NCBI GenBank assembly: GCA_037044975.1
Contig: JBAOIL010000030.1
Coordinates: forward strand, 204,802 to 268,801
Length of the DNA stretch: 64,000 bases
DNA from: Verrucomicrobiota bacterium
Lineage (GTDB): Bacteria; Verrucomicrobiota; Verrucomicrobiia; Limisphaerales; JADLHS01
Direction of reading: 5' to 3'
Shown one piece after another: positions 902 through 45,391 of this stretch. Numbering within the stretch: position 1 is the first letter of the stretch; each line of letters starts with the position of its first letter. The notes beneath the pieces were generated by a model. The model worked only from the letters and a program-made list of their open reading frames with translations. It was not told the origin of the DNA and did not search any database. The translations under genes were made by a program, and so were the position numbers.

Positions 902-985
902 GACGGGGTTATTTCAGAGCCCGGGCGGGTGGGCAAGGTTGGAGATCAATTCTTTGGGGAAAAAGGTTGTCAAGCGGCATCCGCC

Positions 986-998
986 CTGCTGAACTTGG
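986..998 (+). promoter_or_regulatory. Conserved 13-nt leader CTGCTGAACTTGG (copy 1), shared with the paralog at 4840..4852
   Basis: Identical 13-mer just upstream of the ATG of both small His/Cys paralogs, each preceded by GCAT 5 nt further upstream. It falls in different reading frames relative to the two ATGs, so the conservation is at nucleotide level. Confidence 0.45.
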
Positions 999-1002
999 GG
1001 TG

Positions 1003-1332
1003 ATGCAGTCGCCGTTCCAGAGACAGTCCGTCTGGCTCAAGCCCGCGCTCGCGGGTTTGATGGCGGGGTTGGCCCTGCTGCTGGCGCTAGTCGCGTCCAG
1101 CGAAAGCCTGCATCACCAGTTGCATGGCAATTCCGCGGATGGCCAAAGCCTGTGTGCCATTTGCTCGGTGGTCCGGGGGCAACTGGATGCCCCGGCCTCG
1201 GCCTCGCCCGAAGCCGCCGTGAAGTTTTTTGGTGCATGGACCCTTCCCCACCTTGAATCGGCAAAGGCGCACCCGGTTGATGGCTCCGTAGCTTCTAGTC
1301 GCGATCCGCCGGCTTCTTTTTCTTCCCTGTAA
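1003..1332 (+). CDS. Small membrane-anchored His/Cys-motif protein (paralog A)
   Basis: The ORF track gives 967..1332 with a TTG start; the first ATG is at 1003. One hydrophobic helix (LAGLMAGLALLLALVA) is followed by LHHQLH-x8-C-x2-C-x5-GQLDA. It is a paralog of 4862..5191 (LHHFFH-x8-HHC-x8-GQIDA). Confidence 0.5.
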   Translation: MQSPFQRQSVWLKPALAGLMAGLALLLALVASSESLHHQLHGNSADGQSLCAICSVVRGQLDAPASASPEAAVKFFGAWTLPHLESAKAHPVDGSVASSRDPPASFSSL

Positions 1333-1423
1333 TTCGTCACTGGCTCTTCATGGGCCGGCTTTTTCCGTTTGGTTTTTAACCTTTGGCGTGCCGCGTCGCG
1401 TGGACGCTCTGAATACGAAATTT

Positions 1424-2893
1424 ATGAATCCTTGGAAGATGATGAGAATGACCGTTTTGGTTTCCGCGTTGGTCCTGGCGCCGCAAAGTGCGGTTCGGGC
1501 GCAGGAAACCAATCAAATAAACCAGTTGAAGCGGCAACTGGAGTTGATGCAGGAGAATTTTGAAAAAGTGCAGCGCGCCCAGCGGGAGCAGATCGAGGCG
1601 TTGACCAGACAATTGAATGAGGTTATCCACCAGCAGACGACAACGACGGAGCAAAAGAAGCTGGAGGCACAACTGGCTCTGGATTTGGCGACCAATCAAC
1701 CGGCGGCAACGGCGTCCGCAAATGCCTTGGAGAAGGCGCCGTGGTCCCCGGCGCAGCCACTCACCGTGGCCCGGAGTGGCGCGTCGTACCTAAACTTGAG
1801 CTTTGACGGCATGTTCGCCGTCGGTGGCTCCTCGGCGCAAGATATCGAAGCGCTCGAATTTGGGGGCCACGATCCCAAGCAGAACGGTTTCACCGTGCAA
1901 AACTTGGAGATGACGCTGGACGGCAAGGTAGATCCTTATTTCAAGGGTCAAGCTAACATCGTGTTGCAAATTGACCCCGATGGCGAGACGATCATCGAGG
2001 CGGAGGAGGCGTTTCTGGAAACCATTTCGCTACCGTGGAATTTGCAGGTGAAGGCCGGGCAATATTACACCCAGTTTGGACGGATCAATCCGACGCATCC
2101 GCATACATGGGATTTTGTGGATCAGCCACTCGTCATTGGCCGCTTCCTGGGGCCGGATGGCTTGCGCAATCCAGGCGCACAGGTTTCCTGGCTCGCGCCG
2201 ACGCCTTTTTATTCTGAACTTTTCCTGTCCGTGCAAAACAGTGGGGGTGAAACGGCCACGAGCTTTCGCGATGCAGCGGGCACCGAATTGATCACGCAGC
2301 ATCCCGGCGTGGACACGTCGGTGGAAAACGCGGGCGACATGCTCTATTCGCCGCGCTATGTGATGTCGTTCGATCTGGGGGATGAACATACGTTGGTGTT
2401 GGGCGGATCGGGTGCGTTTGGACCGAACGCCAGTGGGCCGGATGGGCGGACGGCGATCTACGGCGCCGACCTGTTCTACAAATGGAAGTCGCGCAATCAT
2501 GACAAGGGGTTTCCGTTTGTGACGTGGCAGACGGAGTATTTATACAGCCACTATGACGCGGCGGCCTATTCCGGCAGTCCCGGTTTTCCGGCTTCGGCGG
2601 CGACGACCATCAATAATTGGGGCCTATACTCTCAGGTATCGTACGGCTTCCGACCCCGTTGGGTCGCGTCATTACGCGGCGATTACGTGACCGGCCAGCC
2701 GGGTGATTTCTGGGCGAACCCGCTGCTCGACGATCGTTACCGTATCTCGCCGGCGCTGACTTTTTTTCCAAGCGAGTTTTCCAAGATTCGTCTGCAGTAT
2801 AATTACGATCACATCCAGAACACGGGCGTGGAAAACTCGGTGTGGTTCCAATTCGAGTTTCTCCTTGGCGCACACTCGGCGCACCGGTTTTAG
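1424..2893 (+). CDS. Putative outer-membrane beta-barrel porin with N-terminal coiled coil
   Basis: Signal peptide MNPWKMMRMTVLVSALVLAPQSAVRAQE, heptad-like QLKRQLELMQENFEKVQRAQREQIEALTRQLNEV, alternating aromatic/Gly-rich strands and a C-terminal Phe (..HSAHRF). ORF track start 1388 is GTG; the ATG at 1424 is preferred. Confidence 0.6.
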   Translation: MNPWKMMRMTVLVSALVLAPQSAVRAQETNQINQLKRQLELMQENFEKVQRAQREQIEALTRQLNEVIHQQTTTTEQKKLEAQLALDLATNQPAATASANALEKAPWSPAQPLTVARSGASYLNLSFDGMFAVGGSSAQDIEALEFGGHDPKQNGFTVQNLEMTLDGKVDPYFKGQANIVLQIDPDGETIIEAEEAFLETISLPWNLQVKAGQYYTQFGRINPTHPHTWDFVDQPLVIGRFLGPDGLRNPGAQVSWLAPTPFYSELFLSVQNSGGETATSFRDAAGTELITQHPGVDTSVENAGDMLYSPRYVMSFDLGDEHTLVLGGSGAFGPNASGPDGRTAIYGADLFYKWKSRNHDKGFPFVTWQTEYLYSHYDAAAYSGSPGFPASAATTINNWGLYSQVSYGFRPRWVASLRGDYVTGQPGDFWANPLLDDRYRISPALTFFPSEFSKIRLQYNYDHIQNTGVENSVWFQFEFLLGAHSAHRF

Positions 2894-2938
2894 CCGCTCT
2901 CCGCTTTGCACAAACCCATCACCCGATTCAAATTAACC

Positions 2939-3856
2939 ATGAACCATGTTCTCAAGCCCTTGCTGGCCGCGGCCCTGTTAACCGGCGCACTGACGGCGCA
3001 GGCGAAACTGACCATCGTCGTCACCACGCCCGACCTCGCCTCGCTCGCGGAGGCGGTCGGCGGTACGCAAATTGACCTCACCACTTTGGCCCGGCCAACG
3101 GAAGACCCGCACTTTGTGGATGCCAAACCCAGCTTCATCGTGAAGCTCAATCGTGCCGATGCCTTGATTGAAGGTGGCGCGGAGTTGGAAATTGGCTGGC
3201 TGCCGCCGCTGCTCACGGGGGCGCGAAATTCCAAGCTGGCTTCGGGTGCGCTGGGGTACATCCGGGCCAACGAAGGCATTCAAATGCTCGAAGTGCCCAC
3301 CGCACTGGACCGTTCGGAGGGTGACATCCATGCTGCGGGCAATCCGCATTTTCTGGTGGACCCGGAAAACGCGAAGATCATTGCCCGCCACCTCGCGGAC
3401 GTGTTTTGCAAACTGGACGCGGCAAATTGCGCGACCTACCAGACGAACTTGAAGAAGTTCCTGGAGGAATTGGATGTCAAAATGGTGGAGTGGCAAAAGC
3501 AACTTGCGCCCTTCAAAGGCGAGCAGATTGTCGCGTATCACAACTCCTGGGTCTATTTCGCACGCCGCTTTGGCTTGCGGATTGATTTGTTTCTCGAACC
3601 CAAACCAGGCATCCCGCCTTCGCCCGCGCATCTCGCGTCGGTGATCACGAAAATGAAGGCGGACAAGACGCGTGTCATCATTGTGGATCCGTATCTGAAT
3701 CGGCGAACGGCGGAAACCGTGGCGCGAAACACGGGTGCAACGGTGGTGGACGTGGCGCAGATGCCCGGGGGCGTAAAAGGTACGGAGGGCGGCTACATGG
3801 CCTTGATGGACTATTTGGTGAATTCGCTGGCAAAGGCGCTGATTCAAAGGAATTGA
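2939..3856 (+). CDS. Metal ABC transporter substrate-binding protein (ZnuA/TroA, cluster A-I type)
   Basis: Signal peptide, then VVTTPDLASLAEAVGG..., DPHF, NPHFLVDP, YHNSWVYFARRFGL and a C-terminal VVDV... layout typical of ZnuA/TroA-family binding proteins. ATG at 2939 (track start 2906 is TTG). Confidence 0.8.
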   Translation: MNHVLKPLLAAALLTGALTAQAKLTIVVTTPDLASLAEAVGGTQIDLTTLARPTEDPHFVDAKPSFIVKLNRADALIEGGAELEIGWLPPLLTGARNSKLASGALGYIRANEGIQMLEVPTALDRSEGDIHAAGNPHFLVDPENAKIIARHLADVFCKLDAANCATYQTNLKKFLEELDVKMVEWQKQLAPFKGEQIVAYHNSWVYFARRFGLRIDLFLEPKPGIPPSPAHLASVITKMKADKTRVIIVDPYLNRRTAETVARNTGATVVDVAQMPGGVKGTEGGYMALMDYLVNSLAKALIQRN

Positions 3857-3967
3857 AATGTACACAACATCGAAGAAGCACGACTGCCAACCGTTGGTGG
3901 GTGGCCGTTCATGCATTTCGCTGGATGCTGAGCGTTCGCGGTTGGCTGGCTGTTACCCGGGTTATTT

Positions 3968-4792
3968 ATGACTGAGATCCTCTCCGTAATGAAATGGCCG
4001 CTGGTCGCGTGTTTGTTGCTGCCGGGCATCCTGGTTTATTACGGGCTGCACATCATCCGGCGCGAAGTCATCTTCGTTGACCTCGCGCTGGCGCAGGTAG
4101 CCACGCTTGGTACGTGCGTTTGTTTGTTCCTCGGCCATGAGCCTGACGATCCGCACAACTATTTTTGGTCGCTCGGTTTCACGCTGGTGGGTGCGTTGGT
4201 GTTCACGTTCACGCGTGCGACGAGGCACGCGAAGGTACCGCAGGAGGCGCTGATCGGCATTACTTACGTCGTGGCGGCAGCGGCGGGGATTTTGTTGTTA
4301 AGCAAAAGCCCGCACGGCAAGGAGGAACTCCAACGTACGCTTGTCGGCGACCTGCTTACGGTGACGCCGGTGGAAATCGGAAAAACCGCCGCACTCTACG
4401 CCGTCATTGCGATCGTGCATTTTATCTTCCGGAAACAATTCATCCGGCTTTCCTGGGATCACGAGCATGCGGCGGCCGGCGGACTGTCCGTGCATTTCTG
4501 GGACTTTCTTTTTTACGCCCTGTTCGGTCTGATCGTGACCAGCTTCGTGCAAGTGGGTGGGGTGCTCATGGTATTCTCCTATCTCATTGTGCCAGCGGCG
4601 TGCGGGACATATCTGGCGGTCTCCCTGCCGGCGCGACTCGCTATCGGCTGGTGCGTGGCGACCATGGCGAGCGTCGGTGGACTTTACGCGTCATTCAAGC
4701 TCGACGTGCCTACGGGCGCCGCCATCGTGTGCGTGCTGGGGGTGACCTTGTTGCTGGCGGTGATCGCGCAGAAGTTCCGGCGCCCTGCTTGA
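3968..4792 (+). CDS. Metal ABC transporter permease (ZnuB/TroC-D family)
   Basis: 274 aa, multi-pass. FVDLALAQVATLG and LLSKSP...LVGDLLTV resemble the ABC-3 (ZnuB-type) permease family. It lies directly downstream of the binding protein. Confidence 0.75.
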   Translation: MTEILSVMKWPLVACLLLPGILVYYGLHIIRREVIFVDLALAQVATLGTCVCLFLGHEPDDPHNYFWSLGFTLVGALVFTFTRATRHAKVPQEALIGITYVVAAAAGILLLSKSPHGKEELQRTLVGDLLTVTPVEIGKTAALYAVIAIVHFIFRKQFIRLSWDHEHAAAGGLSVHFWDFLFYALFGLIVTSFVQVGGVLMVFSYLIVPAACGTYLAVSLPARLAIGWCVATMASVGGLYASFKLDVPTGAAIVCVLGVTLLLAVIAQKFRRPA

Positions 4793-4795
4793 GGC

Positions 4796-4810
4796 TGCAA
4801 GTCACTTGCA
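4796..4810. promoter_or_regulatory. Perfect 15-bp palindrome TGCAAGT-C-ACTTGCA (candidate operator)
   Basis: 7-1-7 inverted repeat 4 nt after the permease stop and about 50 nt upstream of paralog B. A 1-nt spacer cannot form a stable hairpin loop, so a dimeric protein site is more plausible than a terminator. It is followed by the TGCATGCA palindrome at 4832..4839. Confidence 0.35.
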
Positions 4811-4839
4811 AATAATACCATGGTTGTTGTGCATGCAAT

Positions 4840-4852
4840 CTGCTGAACTTGG
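4840..4852 (+). promoter_or_regulatory. Conserved 13-nt leader CTGCTGAACTTGG (copy 2)
   Basis: Identical to 986..998. It lies 9 nt upstream of the ATG at 4862. Confidence 0.45.
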
Positions 4853-4861
4853 TTCGTTGGA

Positions 4862-5191
4862 ATGAATCGAAGACTGAAAAAATCAAGTGACACCGTTCCG
4901 CTCCGATGGGCGCGGGCGGGGCTGTTGCTTGGCCTGTTCCTTTTTGTGCTGGCGCTGGCTCAATTCGGGGCGCTGCACCATTTCTTCCATGCCGACTCCA
5001 AGCAGCCAAACCATCACTGCGCCGCCACCATGCTGGCCGGTGGTCAGATTGACGCTGCTCCGCCATGCGCAGTAGCCGTAGTGGTTTCTCCGATCCAGTT
5101 CGTGGTGACCATCACCGAGCTGTTTCCCATTTTCGTCTCGTTTGATTTCACCCTTCCTCTCAGTTGCGGCCCGCCCGCACTCCGCTCCTAA
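4862..5191 (+). CDS. Small membrane-anchored His/Cys-motif protein (paralog B)
   Basis: 109 aa. Basic N-terminus, TM helix LLLGLFLFVLALAQFGA, then LHHFFHADSKQPNHHCAATMLAGGQIDAAPP. It aligns with paralog A over the motif region. Confidence 0.55.
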   Translation: MNRRLKKSSDTVPLRWARAGLLLGLFLFVLALAQFGALHHFFHADSKQPNHHCAATMLAGGQIDAAPPCAVAVVVSPIQFVVTITELFPIFVSFDFTLPLSCGPPALRS

Positions 5192-5336
5192 GTCGTAGTT
5201 GGTCTTTTCCGGGGTGGTGGTTCGCGCAAGCGAATTGTCGCCGCTTTCGGAAAGGAAATTTCCCTCAAGTTAATTCCGTTCGGGTTTTTCGTGCCCGGAT
5301 TCACTGCGCGTGGATCAAAAGACGAAAAGCAACATT

Positions 5337-6017
5337 ATGAAAACGAACCGGGCGATGAATCGCCGTGGTGGGTTCACTTTGATCGAATTGCTGGTGGTGA
5401 TTGCCATCATAGCAATTCTGGCGGCCATGCTTTTGCCAGCATTGGCTAAGGCCAAGAGCAAAGCGTACTCCGTCAGTTGCATCTCGAATATGCGGCAGAT
5501 CGGCATTGCAATGAACCTGTATGCCGAGGACAACAGCGGTTGGCTGCCTACCACCACCCACGGCGGCAGCACCAACGCCTCATGGATTTATCAGCTCGCC
5601 AGTCAACTTGCCAACGTGGATCGCGTCCGGCTCTGTCCCGCTGATCCCAAACGCGAGGAGCGATTGACGGCTCATGCCTCAAGCTACACTCAGAACGAAT
5701 TCGTCTTCGTGGATCTCACGGACCCGTTTGGTCGGATTTTGGAGTCCTATCGCAAATTCGCCACGATCCCGAAGCCCTCGCTGACCATCACCACGTTCGA
5801 CATTTCCGACACCGTCGGGATGAACGTGATGAACGATCACACGCATTCCCGGCAATGGCTGCTCGGCTGGAGTTCCGTCACGGCGGACATTCAACCCACG
5901 CGCCACGGCCAGTCGGCCAACTACCTGTTTGCCGACAGCCACGTGGAAAGCATTCGGGCGGAGAAACTCAAGGCGCGCATTGCTGCCGGTGACAATTTCG
6001 CCAAGCCGCCGAAGTAA
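5337..6017 (+). CDS. Prepilin-type N-terminal cleavage/methylation domain protein (DUF1559/H-X9-DG-like pseudopilin)
   Basis: [30 protein letters not shown]-terminal pilin-like signal. C-terminal [13 protein letters not shown] resembles the H-X9-DG motif region. ATG at 5337 (track start 5310 is GTG). Confidence 0.8.
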
Positions 6018-6093
6018 GAAACCAAAACAAAAATCAATTTCACGGTGCGAGCCGTGATTCACGAGACAAACCCAGTAGTAAAAAACAAGTAGC

Positions 6094-6837
6094 ATGAAAA
6101 AACAAAACACTCAGATCATCGGTCACATCCGCCAGCTTGGGCTGGCGGCACTGTTGACCACGGGCCTGGCGTCCCAGGCGCAAACCTACCTTTGGGAGGG
6201 ACACACTGATGTCGGTATCGTCTATGAACTCGGCGCGTGGAACCTGCACATCGGCCGGCACGATGACATCCCGCCGATGGAATACGCGCCCAACGAGGCC
6301 GTTCTTGGCGTGGACCTTCTGGCAGCCGGCACGACAGTGCCCGCCAATCCACAGTATGGCTTCCTCGGCACAGCGGGCAGTCCGGTCTGGATTCTGCCGG
6401 AGGTGCAAAACCCGGCCCTCCTGTTCCTGGGCTTCGGCACGGAAGAATTGGCGAACGGCCTGTTCGTCGGCGACCAGGTGACGATGAGCTTGCAAGCCGT
6501 CAGGGGGCCCGGCCAGTTCTCCGTCTATGACGTGGACATGTTCGGCAGTCCTAACGTGTTCATGAACTCTGGCAACGGCATCACCGGTGCCGATTCCATC
6601 GTGCTGCCCGCCGGCGGGCATCAACATGCGAACTGGGCTTTCAGCACGCCCGGCACCTACGAGGTGGACTTCAATGCTTCCGGCACGCTCGTGGACGGCA
6701 ATGTCTTCACTTCCAGTGGTCCGATTACCTACACCTTCGAGGTCGCGGCGGTGCCGGAGCCGAGCGCTCTGGCGCTGCTTCTCTTGGGCGGTTTCGGGTT
6801 GGCGGGTTTCGCGCGCCGTCGGAATGATCGCGCTTGA
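6094..6837 (+). CDS. Choice-of-anchor-M / TIGR03769-like surface protein with PEP-CTERM anchor
   Basis: Signal peptide; GHTDVG; VPANPQYGFLGTAGSPVWILPEVQ; GPGQFSVY; GGHQHANWAFSTPGTYEVDF. C-terminal VPEPSALALLLLGGFGLAGFARRR is a PEP motif plus TM helix plus Arg cluster. Confidence 0.8.
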   Translation: MKKQNTQIIGHIRQLGLAALLTTGLASQAQTYLWEGHTDVGIVYELGAWNLHIGRHDDIPPMEYAPNEAVLGVDLLAAGTTVPANPQYGFLGTAGSPVWILPEVQNPALLFLGFGTEELANGLFVGDQVTMSLQAVRGPGQFSVYDVDMFGSPNVFMNSGNGITGADSIVLPAGGHQHANWAFSTPGTYEVDFNASGTLVDGNVFTSSGPITYTFEVAAVPEPSALALLLLGGFGLAGFARRRNDRA

Positions 6838-6899
6838 GAACAGTTCACGCGGCGGTCCGGGTGTTCGCGTCCGGGCCGCCGCACTTTTTCCTGAATGAC

Positions 6900-7940
6900 A
6901 TGAAACAACTATTTTTCACCGCTGTCACCACCCTGGCCCTCGCCGTTGCGCCGCGCGCTTCCGCCCAGTGCTTCCAATTCACCGATGGGCATGTGGACTT
7001 GCTGGCTGTGAACTGGAACAGCGCCAGCAATCAACTCACCCTCATGGCTTCCGATGATGCTTCGGGACTGCTTTACGCCAGCAACCAGTGCGTCGTCATC
7101 TGCCCGGAGAGCATGAAATTCACCTTGCCCGCCGGCACCCCGCTCGGCAACGAGGGTGACCCGCTGTGGATTCTCCCGCAGAATCCTTACACCGGCGTGC
7201 CGTATGTCGGGATTTCCGCCGAGTCGGTCACCACCGGTGTGTTCAACGATCCGTTCACACTGACACTGACGCGCCTGGAAGGCCCGGGCCAGTTCATTGT
7301 CTGGCAGGCGGGTTCGTTCGGAGGCTTCGACGTCAAAATGGACACGCGGGACGGCATTGGCGCGAACGATTCACTGACATTGCTCGTTGGCGGACACGCC
7401 CACTACAACTGGGGCTTCACCACCAACGGCGTCTATCGCGCCTATTTCCAAGCCTCCGGCGTTCGCGTCGGCCAAAGCACCAACACTGTTTCGCCGGAGA
7501 CACCGTTCACATTCCACGTGGTGCCACTGCGCCCGTTTGAGAACTGGACTGCCACCAACTGGCCGTGCGAGTGCGCCACCAACATCATCGCCGCCAGCGC
7601 CGACCCGGATGGGGATCGAATCGTCAACGTGTTGGAATACGCCTTCGGCAATAACCCGCATGTCGCGCTCTACACGAATGTGCCCGCAATCACCTTCGTC
7701 ACCGACAGCGGAACGAATTACGGTGCGCTGCGTTTTGTCCAGGCGACCAACGCCACGGACCTCACCTTCAATCCCGTGGCCGCCGATTCCGTGACAAGCG
7801 CAATCTGGTCAAGCCTCACCAATACCGTCAGCGTCGTCACCAATGGCGCAACCCAAACAATGACTGTGCGCGACTCGCTTTCCATGGAGGGGACGACCAA
7901 TCGCTTCTACCAACTTCGCGTGAAATTGAACTACCCATGA
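6900..7940 (+). CDS. Choice-of-anchor-M / TIGR03769-like secreted protein with C-terminal DPDGD/EYAFG module
   Basis: Signal peptide MKQLFFTAVTTLALAVAPRASAQ; GHVDLL; GDPLWILPQNP; GPGQFIVW; GGHAHYNWGFTTNGVYRAYF; then DPDGDRIVNVLEYAFGNNP and a terminal ...RFYQLRV module. The stop overlaps the next gene's ATG (ATGA). Confidence 0.75.
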   Translation: MKQLFFTAVTTLALAVAPRASAQCFQFTDGHVDLLAVNWNSASNQLTLMASDDASGLLYASNQCVVICPESMKFTLPAGTPLGNEGDPLWILPQNPYTGVPYVGISAESVTTGVFNDPFTLTLTRLEGPGQFIVWQAGSFGGFDVKMDTRDGIGANDSLTLLVGGHAHYNWGFTTNGVYRAYFQASGVRVGQSTNTVSPETPFTFHVVPLRPFENWTATNWPCECATNIIAASADPDGDRIVNVLEYAFGNNPHVALYTNVPAITFVTDSGTNYGALRFVQATNATDLTFNPVAADSVTSAIWSSLTNTVSVVTNGATQTMTVRDSLSMEGTTNRFYQLRVKLNYP

Positions 7941-8791
7941 ATACCATGCTCGAAACCTCGAAACCCGCCGCACCCGCTCGTGGCGCGGCAGCCCTACCGG
8001 CCGGCCGCGATCAACTCAACGGCAATCCGGTTGGCTTCAAACCCGACGTCATCACGATCAAGAACCTGCGCATCGAGTATCGCTCGCGCGAGTTGGGCAG
8101 CCAGAAGAAACTCGCCGTGAAGGACCTTTCGCTCTCGGTTCATGCGGGCGAGGTGTTCGGTTTCCTCGGGCCGAATGGTGCGGGCAAAACCTCGACGATG
8201 AACGTGCTTTTGGGTTTCGTGCCGCCGACCAGTGGAACGGCGAACATTTTCGGCGTGAACGTGCAGCAAACCATCGCGCGGCAGCGGCTCGGTTATCTGC
8301 CGGAGTTGACCTACTACTACAAGTTTCTCACGGCGGAGGAATTGTTGCGGTTCTATTCGCGCATCTTCGGCATCGAGAAAGCCGAGCGCGAGCGGCGCAT
8401 TGATGCCGTGTTGAAACTGGTGGAACTGGAACACGCGCGCAAGCGACTCATCAAAACCTACTCGAAAGGAATGCAGCAGCGCGTCGGTCTCGCGCAGGCG
8501 CTCATCAATAATCCCGATCTGCTCATTCTCGACGAACCCACGAGCGGCCTCGATCCGCTGGGCCGCATGAAAGTGCGCGACATCATCAAACGCCTCAAGA
8601 ACGAGGGCAAAACGGTGTTCTTCTCCTCGCACGAACTCGGCGAAGTGGAAACTGTCTGCGACCGCGTTGCCATTATGCACGAGGGCGAACTCAAGGTGGC
8701 AGGTCGCGTGGACGACCTCGCGCAACAGCATCAGTGCAACCTCGAACAATTGTTCCTCAAGATCGTGGGCTATCAACCGGAGAATCTCTGA
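7937..8791 (+). CDS. ABC transporter ATP-binding protein (ABC-2/NosF/CcmA-like subfamily)
   Basis: Walker A GPNGAGKTS, signature YSKGMQQRVGLA, Walker B LLILDEPTSGLD, H-loop SSHEL. Confidence 0.9.
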   Translation: MNTMLETSKPAAPARGAAALPAGRDQLNGNPVGFKPDVITIKNLRIEYRSRELGSQKKLAVKDLSLSVHAGEVFGFLGPNGAGKTSTMNVLLGFVPPTSGTANIFGVNVQQTIARQRLGYLPELTYYYKFLTAEELLRFYSRIFGIEKAERERRIDAVLKLVELEHARKRLIKTYSKGMQQRVGLAQALINNPDLLILDEPTSGLDPLGRMKVRDIIKRLKNEGKTVFFSSHELGEVETVCDRVAIMHEGELKVAGRVDDLAQQHQCNLEQLFLKIVGYQPENL

Positions 8792-8794
8792 CCT

Positions 8795-9571
8795 ATGAAA
8801 AACTCATTTGCCGTCGCGCAGCTTGTCATTCTCGAAATGTATCGACGCAAGGACTTTTACGTCCTGTACTTTCTCACCGTGCTCATCACGGGCCTGATGG
8901 GGTCGGTGAATTTCTTCAACGATCCCAAGGTCGCCCGTTACTTGAAGGAAATCTGCCTCGCGCTCATCTGGATTTGCGGGGCATTCATCGCCATCGCCAC
9001 CACCGCACGCCAGATTCCCGCCGAGCGCGAGAGCCGCACCATCTTTCCGTTGATGGCGAAGCCCATCACGCGTGGGCAGGTGTTGTTCGGCAAATTCCTC
9101 GGCTGCTGGGTGGCGACGTGTCTCTGCCTCGTGGCGTTCTATCTGTTCTTCGGAATCGTCGCGGCGGCCAAGGAACATGACTGGCCGGTGGGAATCTATT
9201 TTCAGGCGTGGTCACTGCATTGCGTGATGCTGGGCGTGGTCATCGGCATGACGCTGCTCGGTTCGCTCGTGCTGAGTTCCGTGGCCGCAAACATCACCTT
9301 GAGCGTCGTGATCACGGCAGGAATTCTTTTCGTCGGCAGGCATCTGAACAAAGTCGCCGCGCAAATGAGCGAAACGGCGGGCGCGATGGTGAGCGGACTT
9401 TACTACGCTATCCCGCACCTGGAGTTGTTTGACGTGCGCGATCTCATCGTCCACAACTGGCCGCTCATCGGCTGGAGCATCTGGGGCATCGCGGTGGTGT
9501 ATGCGTTGGTCTATGCGGGAATGCTGGTCCTCGCGTCCTGGCTCGTGTTTCGGAGGAAATCTTTCCAATGA
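8795..9571 (+). CDS. ABC-2 type transporter permease
   Basis: 258 aa, about 6 TM segments, directly after the ATPase (3-nt gap). No similarity to ZnuB-type permeases. Confidence 0.7.
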   Translation: MKNSFAVAQLVILEMYRRKDFYVLYFLTVLITGLMGSVNFFNDPKVARYLKEICLALIWICGAFIAIATTARQIPAERESRTIFPLMAKPITRGQVLFGKFLGCWVATCLCLVAFYLFFGIVAAAKEHDWPVGIYFQAWSLHCVMLGVVIGMTLLGSLVLSSVAANITLSVVITAGILFVGRHLNKVAAQMSETAGAMVSGLYYAIPHLELFDVRDLIVHNWPLIGWSIWGIAVVYALVYAGMLVLASWLVFRRKSFQ

Positions 9572-10458
9572 AAACGAATCGTGCGTTTGTTTTACTGGGG
9601 GTTTTGTTGCTCGTTGTTTGCACCGGACTGGCTGCATCACTGGATCGCTGGTTCATGGGCTGGCAGGGCAATCGGGCCAAGAACTTTAATCCGCTGAATG
9701 TTGCCATCGGGGACGGCCAGAAGATTTTTGCCGGACAGTTTTATCGCAAGGCCGACGTGTATTTCCACAGCGGCATGTATCCGAGCATCTTTGACAACAA
9801 CGCGTCGTTCAAGACCGCCCATATCGGTGAAGACGCGGGTGCGACGGGGAGCAAGAACCAAGGTGACGAGGCCAATTATCTCGGCAAGTCACACGACATC
9901 GTGGAACAGTTCAGTCGAAATTTTTTTCCCTCCCACCACACCCATCTTGATGAGGGCGGCGTGGCGGGCGAACTCGGCGATAAATCCGACGTGCGTGAGA
10001 TTTTGCCGTGGCTGAAAATCGCTCAAGAACTCGATCCCGAAGAACCGCTCACCTACACCGTCACGGCCTATTGGCTGCGCAGCCGGATGAACAAACCGCA
10101 CGAAGCCGAACGGCTGTTGCGCGAAGGTTTGAAGGCGTTACCTGATCATCCGGCGTTGCAGTTTGAATTGGGGCGGATCTACTTTGAGAATCAAAAAGAC
10201 TCCGCCCGCGCTCGCAACATCTGGGAACACGCGGTCAAGTCCTGGCAGAAGCAGGAAGGGGTTAAAGCCGATCCCGACACGTTCATTCTGGAACAAATTC
10301 TTACTCATCTGGCCAAGCTCGAAGAGGAAGCGGGCAACTTGCCCCTCGCGATCAGCTATTGGGAACAGGCAAAGGTTTACGCCCGCAAACCCGATGTCAT
10401 TCAGCAGCGCATTGACGAGCTCGCACCGAGGAAACTCGTCCCTAACGGCCCGCCATGA
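9568..10458 (+). CDS. Membrane-anchored TPR-like repeat protein
   Basis: N-terminal TM helix (AFVLLGVLLLVVCTGLAA). The C-terminal half has TPR-like helical repeats (AYWLRSRMNKPHEAERLLREGLKALPDHPALQFELGRIYFENQKD...). ATGA overlaps at both ends. Confidence 0.6.
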   Translation: MKTNRAFVLLGVLLLVVCTGLAASLDRWFMGWQGNRAKNFNPLNVAIGDGQKIFAGQFYRKADVYFHSGMYPSIFDNNASFKTAHIGEDAGATGSKNQGDEANYLGKSHDIVEQFSRNFFPSHHTHLDEGGVAGELGDKSDVREILPWLKIAQELDPEEPLTYTVTAYWLRSRMNKPHEAERLLREGLKALPDHPALQFELGRIYFENQKDSARARNIWEHAVKSWQKQEGVKADPDTFILEQILTHLAKLEEEAGNLPLAISYWEQAKVYARKPDVIQQRIDELAPRKLVPNGPP

Positions 10459-10982
10459 ACGAGGTGGAACAGCGTTTGGGGTGGGCGTTAACGGCTTGTA
10501 GTTGCGCGCGGGCACGCATGACGCCGGTGCGCCGAGCCATTCTTGCGTTTCTCGCCGCCCGCCGATTGCCAGCCAGTCTGGAAATGATCGGGCAAGCGGA
10601 TGGCGTTCGTGGTCAATGTGGCGCGACGACGGTCTATCGGACGTTGATGCTCTTCGAGGGCGCCGAAGTCGTGCGATTGGTCGGCAGTCCGCACAAGATC
10701 AGTTACTTCGTGCTCAATGTACCCGGCGCGAGCAATCATTTCCTGATCTGTAGGCGCTGTGGTTGTCTCGCCGAACTGGCGTTGCCACCTGTGATGGAAG
10801 AAGCGATCCATAACATCGGTGCTGCTCAAGGTTTTCCATCAACCCACCATGATTGTGAAGTTCACGGTTTTTGTTCGGCCTGCCAGAGCGTCCGCGTCGG
10901 GCAGGGAATGCCATCAAAACTGTCGAGTGGCCAGGCGGCCTGGCTGCGGTTGCGACCGCCAATGGATTGCGCTGGTTTGTAG
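10455..10982 (+). CDS. Fur family transcriptional regulator (Zur-like by context)
   Basis: Winged-helix segment TVYRTLMLFEGAEVV, CxxC pairs LICRRCGC and FCSAC, and His/Asp positions between them. The start overlaps the TPR gene stop (ATGA). Confidence 0.75.
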   Translation: MNEVEQRLGWALTACSCARARMTPVRRAILAFLAARRLPASLEMIGQADGVRGQCGATTVYRTLMLFEGAEVVRLVGSPHKISYFVLNVPGASNHFLICRRCGCLAELALPPVMEEAIHNIGAAQGFPSTHHDCEVHGFCSACQSVRVGQGMPSKLSSGQAAWLRLRPPMDCAGL

Positions 10983-11075
10983 TCGGGGTGAGGTCAGCAT
11001 GTTTCTGGGGTTCGGCACTCGACTTCCGGTTCCGACTGGACGCCAACCAGTGTTCCCTCAATCATAGTCGCGGGC

Positions 11076-11972
11076 ATGAATTCCACGATCGGATTGCTGA
11101 TCGCCTACTCGGCGGTCATATTGGTCGCCTCGCTGGCCGGGGGATGGTTGCCCATGCTCGTGCGCCTGACGCACACGCGCTTGCAAACCGCCATCAGCTT
11201 TGTCGCCGGTCTCATGCTCGGCATGGCGTTGCTGCACCTGGTTCCGCACGCCATCGAACAGTCCCATTCGGTTGACCGAACCGTGGCATGGGTGCTGGGT
11301 GGTTTTCTCCTGATGTTTTTCTTGCAACGGTTCTTCCACTTCCATCATCACGATTTGCCCGAGGACGATCCCGAAGACTGCTGTCACGACCATCCCGAGC
11401 CGCACCAGCATGACCATTCACACACACTGGCGGAAAAGTCCGCGCGGCAACTCTCGTGGGCGGGCACGGCCTTGGGCTTGTCATTGCATTCGCTGCTCGA
11501 CGGTCTGGCGCTCGCGGCGGCGGTGATGGCCGAGGCCCAAGGCCACATCGGTCTGGGAGGCTTTGGCACCGCGCTGGTCGTGATCCTGCACAAACCCTTT
11601 GATGCAATGGCAATTACCACGCTGATGACCGCCAGCGGCAAATCGCGTTCGTCGCGACAATGGCTAAATGCGTTGTTCGCCCTGGCCACCCCGCTTGGGG
11701 CGATTGTGTTTTCGCTTGGCGCAATTCATCTGACGGATTCGCACGCGGCGCTGCTCGGCGCCGCCCTGGCCTTTTGCGCCGGCAACTTTCTCTGCATCGC
11801 CTGCAGCGACCTGCTGCCGGAGTTGCAATTTCATTCGCACGACCGTTTCAAGCTCTCCATCGCCTTGCTGGCGGGTTTGTCCGTGGCGGTCTTCATTGGT
11901 GGTTTTGAAACCGCCGGTCACGAAAGTCACGTCCACGAACCGGTTGCGCCCGTGCTTCCCCAAACCAACTAA
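11076..11972 (+). CDS. ZIP family metal transporter (ZupT-like) with His-rich loop
   Basis: 8-TM layout, HLVPHAIE, a central HFHHHDLPEDDPEDCCHDHPEPHQHDHSH loop, LHSLLDGLALA and FLCIACSDLLPE, typical of ZIP/ZupT. Confidence 0.85.
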   Translation: MNSTIGLLIAYSAVILVASLAGGWLPMLVRLTHTRLQTAISFVAGLMLGMALLHLVPHAIEQSHSVDRTVAWVLGGFLLMFFLQRFFHFHHHDLPEDDPEDCCHDHPEPHQHDHSHTLAEKSARQLSWAGTALGLSLHSLLDGLALAAAVMAEAQGHIGLGGFGTALVVILHKPFDAMAITTLMTASGKSRSSRQWLNALFALATPLGAIVFSLGAIHLTDSHAALLGAALAFCAGNFLCIACSDLLPELQFHSHDRFKLSIALLAGLSVAVFIGGFETAGHESHVHEPVAPVLPQTN

Positions 11973-45313: not shown

Positions 45314-45391
45314 GCCGCCGGGGTGTGGGCGGCCCGCGTCCGCAAGAAACTTGCAGCGTTTGTTCGCGGGGTCGCTACACTTTGCGGCGTG

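Follow-up and report, generated by a model that had tools for sequence, protein, structure and literature searches.

Two adjacent genes in a 64,000-nucleotide stretch of Verrucomicrobiota DNA (contig JBAOIL010000030.1, positions 204,802 to 268,801; the whole stretch is called the window below) encode choice-of-anchor M proteins, which we name CAM1 and CAM2. Judged by sequence, both belong to the same domain family as a set of zinc-binding proteins of Corynebacterium diphtheriae, marked by paired HxD and HxH motifs, and their genes form part of a small gene unit that recurs in related bacteria. We propose that this unit probably serves to scavenge zinc in the cell envelope under a Zur-type regulator, and that CAM1 and CAM2 would bind Zn2+ and assist its import. 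The host is a Verrucomicrobium (Limisphaerales-like) of activated sludge or wastewater, thus of the diderm lineage that the original prediction for this DNA had assumed. In diderm Verrucomicrobiota and on at least one Pirellulales contig, the HxD/HxH domain therefore appears as a recurring part of probable zinc-starvation cassettes, which ties a curated, functionally unnamed NCBIfam domain to a concrete and testable role.

The CAM domain and its zinc-binding relatives

NF038134, the NCBIfam model of choice-of-anchor M, matches CAM1 (6094-6837, + strand) with 146.4 bits and CAM2 (6900-7940, + strand) with 110.2 bits, along nearly the whole length of the profile (cut-off 55 bits). The TIGR03769 model (P_ac_wall_RPT, cut-off 30.9 bits) is passed by CAM1 at 56.5 bits and narrowly missed by CAM2 at 30.0 bits. 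The original prediction had placed both proteins in this choice-of-anchor M/TIGR03769 family from their motifs, which NF038134 bears out for both and TIGR03769 for CAM1. The same prediction had pointed to TIGR03773, the transporter-associated surface protein with the two-domain architecture of Actinobacteria. Here each protein covers one domain's worth of the 516-position profile and stays below the cut-off of 190.3 bits (CAM1 116.4, CAM2 79.5), so that neither is a member. The family as a whole is of modest size, with 2,794 clusters at 50% identity (E <= 1e-10, among 1.84 billion), and many of its members are multi-domain arrays. The largest reach 4,123 amino acids (aa) with as many as 10 tandem CAM domains, and such long arrays point to high-capacity surface arrays in some organisms.

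The link to zinc comes from C. diphtheriae, in which Peng, Lyman and Schmitt (J Bacteriol 2025, PMC12445094) described ZnuE, ZnuF, ZnuG, CmrA and CmrA2 as components unseen in other metal transport systems. These proteins share an HxD and an HxH motif around about 150 poorly conserved residues, with a conserved G, P and G between the motifs forming part of the domain definition, and the HxD/HxH residues cluster in AlphaFold models. Thermal shifts of the proteins depend on zinc, low zinc impairs the growth of a znuE mutant, and exchange of the conserved His for Ala costs the proteins their function in vivo (PMC12445094). In an earlier study, the whole C. diphtheriae cluster together with cmrA/cmrA2 was found to be repressed by zinc and Zur (PMC6711530). 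We took the domain sequences of ZnuE, ZnuG, ZnuF-1, CmrA-2 and CmrA2-2 from Figure S1 of PMC12445094 and found that all five match NF038134, with 78-119 bits. Because they do, H37-T-D39...H176-Q-H178 in CAM1 and H31-V-D33...H166-A-H168 in CAM2 represent the published motif pair, and both proteins conform to its full definition. The domain was thus no longer uncharacterised, as the original prediction had believed, while its suggestion that the His-rich motif is a plausible metal site agrees with the published work (PMC12445094).

Each hallmark motif on which that prediction relied is present in both proteins: G-H37-T-D39, VWILPE, GPGQF and GG-H176-Q-H178-A-N-W-AF...G-T-Y in CAM1, and GHVD, LWILPQ, GPGQF and GGHAHYNWGF in CAM2. 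CAM2 also carries the DPDGD/EYAFG module (ADPDGDRIVNVLEYAFGNNP) that had been assigned to its C-terminal part. H37, D39 and H176 are invariant in 48 CAM1 homologues, and H178 is sometimes replaced by Asp and by no other residue; Asp also serves as a metal ligand. In 49 CAM2 homologues H31, D33, H166 and H168 are all invariant. By this sequence comparison, the core that the choice-of-anchor M domain conserves consists of GHxD and GGHxH.

CAM1 (247 aa) consists of a signal peptide, the choice-of-anchor M beta-sandwich and a PEP-CTERM signal. The latter occupies residues 220-243 (VPEPSALALLLLGGFGLAGFARRR), running from VPEP through a hydrophobic helix to RRR, and passes both TIGR02595 (25.4 bits, cut-off 16) and the Pfam model PF07589 (27.3 bits, cut-off 20.7), as foreseen for one of the two copies. 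CAM2 gave no PEP-CTERM signal in the same profile scan. It has a signal peptide, the choice-of-anchor M domain, a helical linker with DPDGD/EYAFG and a C-terminal beta-sandwich (residues 263-343). Some CAM1 orthologues, such as P0086 and P0106, have at the PEP-CTERM position a tail of about 70 aa that ends in FFRVRLE, which shows a choice of anchor inside one orthologous group; an identification of this tail with the C-terminal domain of CAM2 was dropped, since BLASTP finds no similarity.

The second open reading frame (ORF) was listed as 6834-7940 (+ strand), with 368 aa when read from a TTG. Both ORFs of the original prediction (6094-6837 and 6834-7940) are real, and it is the start of the second that we revise: CAM2 most likely begins at the ATG at 6900 (MKQLFF...), because a normal signal peptide (MKQLFFTAVTTLALAVAPRASA) then results, because the gene was independently called with 346 aa on four other contigs, and because the TTG-initiated extension would span a 15-bp GC hairpin (6849-6882). 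In one related locus (L085, 6717-8512), CAM1 and CAM2 are each called as two genes although the tblastn matches run on in another frame, reflecting either an assembly frameshift error or a decaying cassette. Sparse metatranscriptome contigs cover ZnuB, the pilin-like gene described below, CAM1 and CAM2.

AlphaFold2 (AF2) models of the two proteins have predicted local distance difference test (pLDDT) values of 89.2 for CAM1 and 92.4 for CAM2. CAM1 is modelled as a lone beta-sandwich between signal peptide and PEP-CTERM helix, to which CAM2 adds short helices bearing DPDGD/EYAFG and then the second beta-sandwich. Compared by Foldseek with the PDB, neither model had a match above a TM-score of 0.30, all matches being of generic Ig-like, Fab or PAD N-domain kind, and we therefore conclude that no solved structure is closely related to them. 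A relationship of the fold to cupredoxins or Cu,Zn-SOD is unsupported by the same comparison. A sequence search of the PDB likewise gave nothing significant, the top match being the cupredoxin domain of Cu nitrite reductase (E = 0.39). Pfam holds no model for the choice-of-anchor M domain, for the C-terminal module of CAM2, or for the small His/Cys proteins and the 501-aa protein encoded nearby.

The conserved cassette, its palindrome and its hairpin

A scan of GTDB species representatives confirmed 416 relatives. We fetched 78 loci (1.22 Mb), 11 actinobacterial and 67 non-actinobacterial, and placed the window's proteins on them by tblastn. The 67 come chiefly from Verrucomicrobiota, with one Pirellulales contig and several metagenome-assembled genomes (MAGs) that bear implausible labels. 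Some contigs (L014, L017, L021, L025, L032, also L019 and P0173) have cassette content of verrucomicrobial type under the names 'uncultured Bifidobacterium/Bifidobacteriaceae', 'Methylomirabilota' or 'Ca. Paceibacterota'; the foreign names probably stem from mistakes of binning or labelling in public MAGs.

In the 67 non-actinobacterial loci, the conserved unit comprises a promoter palindrome, a small His/Cys protein, a pilin-like protein of about 226 aa, CAM1, a hairpin and CAM2, often followed by a Fur-family (Zur-like) gene. At least two CAM genes stand side by side in 58 of the 67, and of the 57 loci whose upstream sequence is long enough, 47 have a pilin-like gene directly before the first CAM gene. 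A Fur-family gene is found in 21/67, often overlapping the CAM2 stop, ZnuA in 13, an ABC-3 permease in 9 and a ZIP gene in 3. Counted together, one or more of the ZnuA, ABC-3, ZIP and Fur genes occur nearby in 32 of the 67 loci, a neighbourhood for which the chance with a random gene is, by rough estimate, about 1-2%. Metal genes are thus enriched near the domain outside Actinobacteria. The proximity of ZnuA and ZnuB that caught the eye in the original prediction is therefore real, but with ZnuA in only 13 loci the pair is not the core of the unit.

Throughout, the internal order of the cassette is kept while its surroundings vary between loci. The ZIP gene lies within the cassette in L004, L022 and L025; in L004 (10753-11571) it stands between CAM1 and CAM2, an independent link of the cassette to a metal importer. 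In L087 a compact row runs from a multi-domain CAM gene through a pilin-like gene, CAM2 and Fur to ZnuA, ZnuC and ZnuB. L044, a contig of Limisphaera, likewise bears pilin-like, CAM1, CAM2 and Fur genes. A further locus, L084 (9580-12212), is a mixed metal island, in which the cassette adjoins genes of copper and nickel homeostasis, for HMA, two SCO1/SenC proteins, CusF and NikR, with a ZnuA/ABC pair on the opposite strand.

The first cassette gene of the window (4862-5191, + strand) encodes a membrane protein of 109 aa with the motif LHHxxH...HxC, and its His and Cys positions are conserved in 18 related loci. It is weakly paralogous to a second small His/Cys membrane protein (967-1332, + strand; pairwise E = 7e-5), with which it shares the motif LHHxxH...C...GQ(I/L)DA, so that one such gene heads each half of the cluster. 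Neither belongs to a Pfam or NCBIfam family. An identical 13-mer, CTGCTGAACTTGG, lies directly upstream of the likely starts of both small genes; as a signal by itself it is not significant, since 7 of 100 shuffles reach an equal count.

Next in the row, the pilin-like gene (5337-6017, + strand; candidate starts GTG 5310, ATG 5337 and ATG 5355) encodes a prepilin N-terminus (G|FTLIELL) followed by a body of DUF1559/HX9DG type. The prepilin motif is recognised by PF07963 (37.5 bits) and TIGR02532 (31.4 bits). DUF1559 (PF07596) reaches 19.9 bits in the window's protein, below its cut-off, and is on record for most orthologues. These form a well-populated subfamily of about 226 aa, annotated as N_methyl and DUF1559/HX9DG, whose members keep the motifs DHxHSR and RH-x9-D-x-H. 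The association also holds in reverse, as CAM genes directly follow the pilin-like gene in all five subfamily members that we looked up.

Upstream of the second small gene lies the 7-1-7 palindrome TGCAAGTCACTTGCA (TGCAAGT-N-ACTTGCA, 4796-4810), a candidate operator of the Fur family (Zur type), of which the 64 kb window holds no other perfect copy. Operators of the Fur family classically have this 7-1-7 inverted-repeat layout. With up to two mismatches, 23 sites occur in the 78 related loci, 21 of them upstream of the small-protein/pilin-like/CAM cassette; in 14 of these the distance to the small gene is identical. The remaining two lie upstream of Znu-type or ABC genes; in L051 the site is found after a Fur gene and before a small His protein and ZnuACB. 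Promoter-like hexamers from a consensus scan (TTGAGG-16-AATAAT, 4789-4816, + strand) enclose the palindrome, although the number of such hits equals chance expectation and they are weak evidence alone. Palindrome-like sites at 45341 and 62410, with two mismatches each, were rejected as operators: their number is that expected by chance, one falls on the start of a ribF-like ORF and the other within a murG-like one, and the window holds no second credible operator.

The probable partner of the palindrome is encoded in the same row, by a Fur-family gene at 10455-10982 (+ strand). Its product, probably a Zur, has two CxxC pairs and matches PF01475 with 40.4 bits. Among NCBIfam models NF008646 Zur fits best, at 48.1 bits against a cut-off of 167, and among PDB entries E. 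coli Zur does (4mtd, E = 1.7e-11). Because this gene shares the row with the 7-1-7 palindrome, the simplest interpretation is that it regulates itself.

Between CAM1 and CAM2, a GC-rich hairpin with a 15-bp stem is followed by a T-tract (6849-6882, + strand; dG -29.8 kcal/mol, z = -3.1). Strong hairpins of differing sequence also follow the CAM1 stop in related loci, with a median dG of -28.6 kcal/mol in 31 loci, whereas the stretch behind the pilin-like gene has a median of -8.2 (Wilcoxon p = 8e-8) and that behind CAM2 one of -18.5 (p = 7e-4). This suggests a terminator/attenuator or an mRNA-stabilising element. Because a strong hairpin is conserved at this place, we suggest that the genes through CAM1 are expressed more strongly than CAM2.

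A ZnuA-family binding protein (2906-3856, + strand; PF01297, 180.9 bits) and an ABC-3 permease, ZnuB (3968-4792, + strand; PF00950, 125.2 bits), are encoded about 1.3 kb upstream of CAM1, with two genes intervening. Their closest NCBIfam models are AztC and AztB, both below cut-off. The 'anchored-repeat' identity that the original prediction had evoked for this pair fails: ZnuA scores 78.6 bits with TIGR03772 (cut-off 350.45), the permease 85.8 bits with TIGR03770 (cut-off 296.8), and the binding protein has no CAM insertion. A true 'anchored-repeat' binding protein is found in Actinosynnema (L059). It scores 646 bits with TIGR03772 and contains an NF038134 domain that is circularly permuted, with HxH before HxD, a reversed motif order also noted for C. 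diphtheriae ZnuA (PMC12445094). Aligned to solved binding proteins of cluster A-I, the Actinosynnema protein splits into two blocks (residues 37-119 and 354-531) around an insertion of about 235 residues that immediately precedes the ligand motif DPHxW. When Synechocystis ZnuA 1pq4 is compared with the shorter 2ov1, which we take to be its loop-deleted form, the offset puts the His-rich loop at this very position. In the actinobacterial protein a CAM domain has thus replaced the zinc-capture loop, which speaks for a hand-over of zinc from CAM domains to the binding protein. The ZnuA of the window has neither a His-rich loop nor a CAM insertion, a gap that CAM proteins could fill in trans.

From 967 to 11972 the genes are closely packed and without exception on the + strand. 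The upstream set (967-4792) consists of the first small His/Cys gene, a gene for a 501-aa protein of no known family (1388-2893, + strand), ZnuA and the ABC-3 permease, an arrangement repeated solely in the closest loci, L013, L017, L021 and L023. The 501-aa protein matches no family or PDB entry. Its N-terminus is signal-like, a region of about residues 35-100 is rich in heptads, and the sequence closes with ...AHRF, suggesting a barrel of the outer membrane. Because its gene adjoins ZnuA in L013, L017, L021, L023 and L056, this protein may be an outer-membrane zinc channel. Downstream of CAM2 follow an ABC-2-type ATPase (7937-8791, + strand; best NCBIfam matches DrrA and GldA) and an ABC-2 permease (8795-9571, + strand; PF12679), an exporter-like pair that is not of ZnuC type and accompanies the cassette in the closest loci only (L013, L021, L023, L040, L051). 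A TPR protein with weak TPR Pfam matches comes next (9568-10458, + strand), its start overlapping the stop of the permease gene; this gene is kept in L013, L021 and L023. Behind the Fur-family gene, the row ends with a ZIP-family, ZupT-like metal importer (11076-11972, + strand; PF02535, 107 bits; ZupT 58.5 bits, below cut-off). In more distant loci (L034, L036, L050, L051, L054, L056, L065 and L087) the usual order ZnuA-ZnuC-ZnuB is seen. A DUF4202 gene (296-901, - strand; PF13875, 227 bits) diverges from the cluster and is also present on L079 and L080, contigs with an identical CAM1.

Proposed zinc capture and competing explanations

How might such a cassette operate? With zinc plentiful, the Zur-like repressor from the end of the row would probably bind the palindrome at 4796-4810, and would let go once zinc is scarce. 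Derepression would allow transcription of the small His/Cys membrane protein, the pilin-like DUF1559/HX9DG protein and CAM1 and, past an attenuating hairpin, of CAM2 and the downstream genes. CAM1 and CAM2 would be exported through the Sec pathway, and the HxD and HxH residues of each CAM beta-sandwich would form a Zn2+ site, as proposed for ZnuE, ZnuF and ZnuG. The PEP-CTERM helix would tether CAM1, whether held in the inner membrane or processed by an exosortase, and by analogy with ZnuE CAM1 may be active in the state bound to the inner membrane; CAM2 would bring its additional C-terminal beta-sandwich. We envision that the CAM proteins and their pilin-like partner would capture zinc in the envelope or at the surface, and that this zinc would be passed to the importers, the loop-less AztC-like ZnuA with its ABC-3 permease on the one hand and the ZIP transporter on the other.

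Several observations weigh against this proposal. The related loci have a common ancestry, and their counts are therefore not counts of independent events. In 35 of the 67 non-actinobacterial loci there is no recognisable metal gene inside the sequence examined, and the palindrome, with up to two mismatches, occurs in only 17 of 57. No ZnuC-type ATPase stands beside the window's ZnuA and ZnuB, since the sole ATPase of the row is the DrrA/GldA-like one paired with the ABC-2 permease. The regulator scores below the Zur cut-off, and in L087 the Fur and PerR models match the regulator slightly better. Mn and Fe, too, are substrates of cluster A-I binding proteins and of ZIP transporters. Finally, the experimental data on the HxD/HxH domain are confined to C. 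diphtheriae, and even there the His-to-Ala proteins still shifted with zinc, so that the authors call the site likely and unproven (PMC12445094).

Among the alternatives, the one that survives best, albeit improbable in our view, is that zinc bound by the CAM proteins is not fed to the importers of the cell itself: the proteins would serve as a buffer, a store or a competitive sink in the envelope, keeping zinc at the surface or denying it to neighbours. In C. diphtheriae, a znuAECB mutant grew again once znuF and znuG were deleted, and overexpression of these two genes impaired growth in low zinc, the rescue being a better fit to sequestration than to delivery, and the authors themselves raise sequestration and storage as possibilities (PMC12445094). 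Tandem arrays of up to 10 domains would suit high-capacity binding, and most verrucomicrobial cassettes lack an adjacent importer. However, ZnuE, a membrane-tethered single-domain protein whose topology is the most CAM1-like, is required for growth in low zinc (PMC12445094). The CAM domain at the His-rich-loop site of the actinobacterial binding protein points to hand-off, and in L087 the cassette and ZnuACB share one gene row.

A bolder version of zinc capture concerns the pilin-like protein, and we offer it as an unlikely speculation. The pilin-like protein of about 226 aa and the CAM proteins would constitute an unrecognised envelope-spanning zinc relay in bacteria of the Planctomycetes-Verrucomicrobia-Chlamydiae (PVC) group. 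In such a relay, a pseudopilus-type protein rooted in the inner membrane would take zinc from the CAM binders, or export or position them, by means of its DHxHSR and RH-x9-D-x-H motifs. If true, the relay would stand in for the TonB-dependent ZnuD route of Proteobacteria, and would provide the first function for a branch of the hugely expanded DUF1559 family. Irrespective of the relay, the cassette provides a first functional lead for one DUF1559/HX9DG subfamily.

It is distinctly improbable, to our mind, that the cassette serves another metal (Mn, Fe, Cu, Ni or Co) under a regulator of Mur, Fur or Nur type. For another metal speak the low Zur score of the regulator, which the Fur and PerR models match about equally well, the resemblance of the binding protein to Mn- and Fe-binding proteins as well, the HMA, SCO1, CusF and NikR genes beside the cassette in L084, and the weak, non-significant CAM1 match to a cupredoxin-type nitrite reductase (E = 0.39). 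Against it, the best matches are consistently of zinc types, namely Zur, AztC and ZupT/ZIP. Ligand sets of only His and Asp are, in general, typical of Zn sites. Moreover, the experimental data on the domain concern zinc and Zur only (PMC12445094, PMC6711530).

That CAM1 and CAM2 are ordinary surface or matrix proteins (adhesins, structural beta-sandwiches), near zinc genes merely by incidental synteny within one order of Verrucomicrobia, would fit the generic Ig-like fold matches, the frequent ties of PEP-CTERM proteins to exopolysaccharide and floc formation, a weak PepA match in the profile scan and the origin of most loci in related MAGs, but is very hard to believe given invariant residues of metal-ligand type at positions that matter in C. 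diphtheriae, a cassette order that stays constant in changing surroundings, a palindrome and a Fur-family gene that travel along, and the same domain tied to zinc ABC transporters, and even fused into the binding protein, in another phylum.

Comparison with known systems

The domain family, its variable anchors and its zinc link are already known. In fact, NCBI already names verrucomicrobial relatives 'choice-of-anchor M', a model name that implies alternative anchors and, by implication, a PEP-CTERM version. What is apparently new is a diderm cassette with a pilin-like DUF1559 partner, a palindromic operator and a hairpin between the CAM genes, together with the argument drawn from the His-loop site. 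Our literature search found nothing relevant on diderm or PEP-CTERM members of the domain family or on the function of DUF1559. Zinc uptake as understood in principle is unchanged by the cassette.

CAM1 resembles known PEP-CTERM/exosortase cargo in its C-terminal signal, recognised by both profiles. Known cargo, in contrast, is mainly of unknown function or tied to exopolysaccharide, and the literature search found no metal-uptake role for any PEP-CTERM protein.

ZinT, AztD and the His-rich loop of ZnuA capture zinc as accessory modules and supply it to a cluster A-I binding protein, and the CAM proteins may be of this kind: the window's binding protein is closest to AztC and lacks the loop, and the actinobacterial CAM domain sits at the loop position. 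This insertion supports the passing of zinc from CAM domains to cluster A-I binding proteins. ZinT folds like a lipocalin and AztD as a beta-propeller, whereas the CAM beta-sandwich has no solved relative in the fold search, and zinc transfer from CAM domains is only proposed.

The authors of the C. diphtheriae study liken their proteins to the streptococcal Pht proteins, which are surface-exposed, zinc-regulated and zinc-binding, often with several binding units, and whose genes lie beside that for the ZnuA-family binding protein AdcAII, the proposed zinc recipient (PMC12445094). The resemblance of CAM1 and CAM2 to Pht is functional only, for sequence and motif are unrelated and Pht attachment is Gram-positive. 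Read directly, neither CAM1 nor CAM2 contains the Pht motif HxxHxH.

The closest likeness is to ZnuE, ZnuF, ZnuG, CmrA and CmrA2 of C. diphtheriae themselves. Shared features are the NF038134 domain, with HxD and HxH about 140-150 aa apart, export by a signal peptide, adjacent paralogues, and the linkage to a Fur-family/Zur regulator and to a cluster A-I ABC importer; like ZnuE, CAM1 also has a C-terminal helix with a basic tail. In contrast, the window's host is a diderm, PEP-CTERM takes the place of LPXTG/sortase or of a plain transmembrane helix, the binding protein lacks an inserted CAM domain and is not of TIGR03772 type, and the CAM proteins fall outside TIGR03773. The window's unit also adds the pilin-like DUF1559/HX9DG gene and the small His/Cys membrane protein, and keeps its regulator in the same row. 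Thus, a domain shared with C. diphtheriae appears to have been equipped otherwise in diderms, with a different anchor, an operator of its own and a dedicated pilin-like partner.

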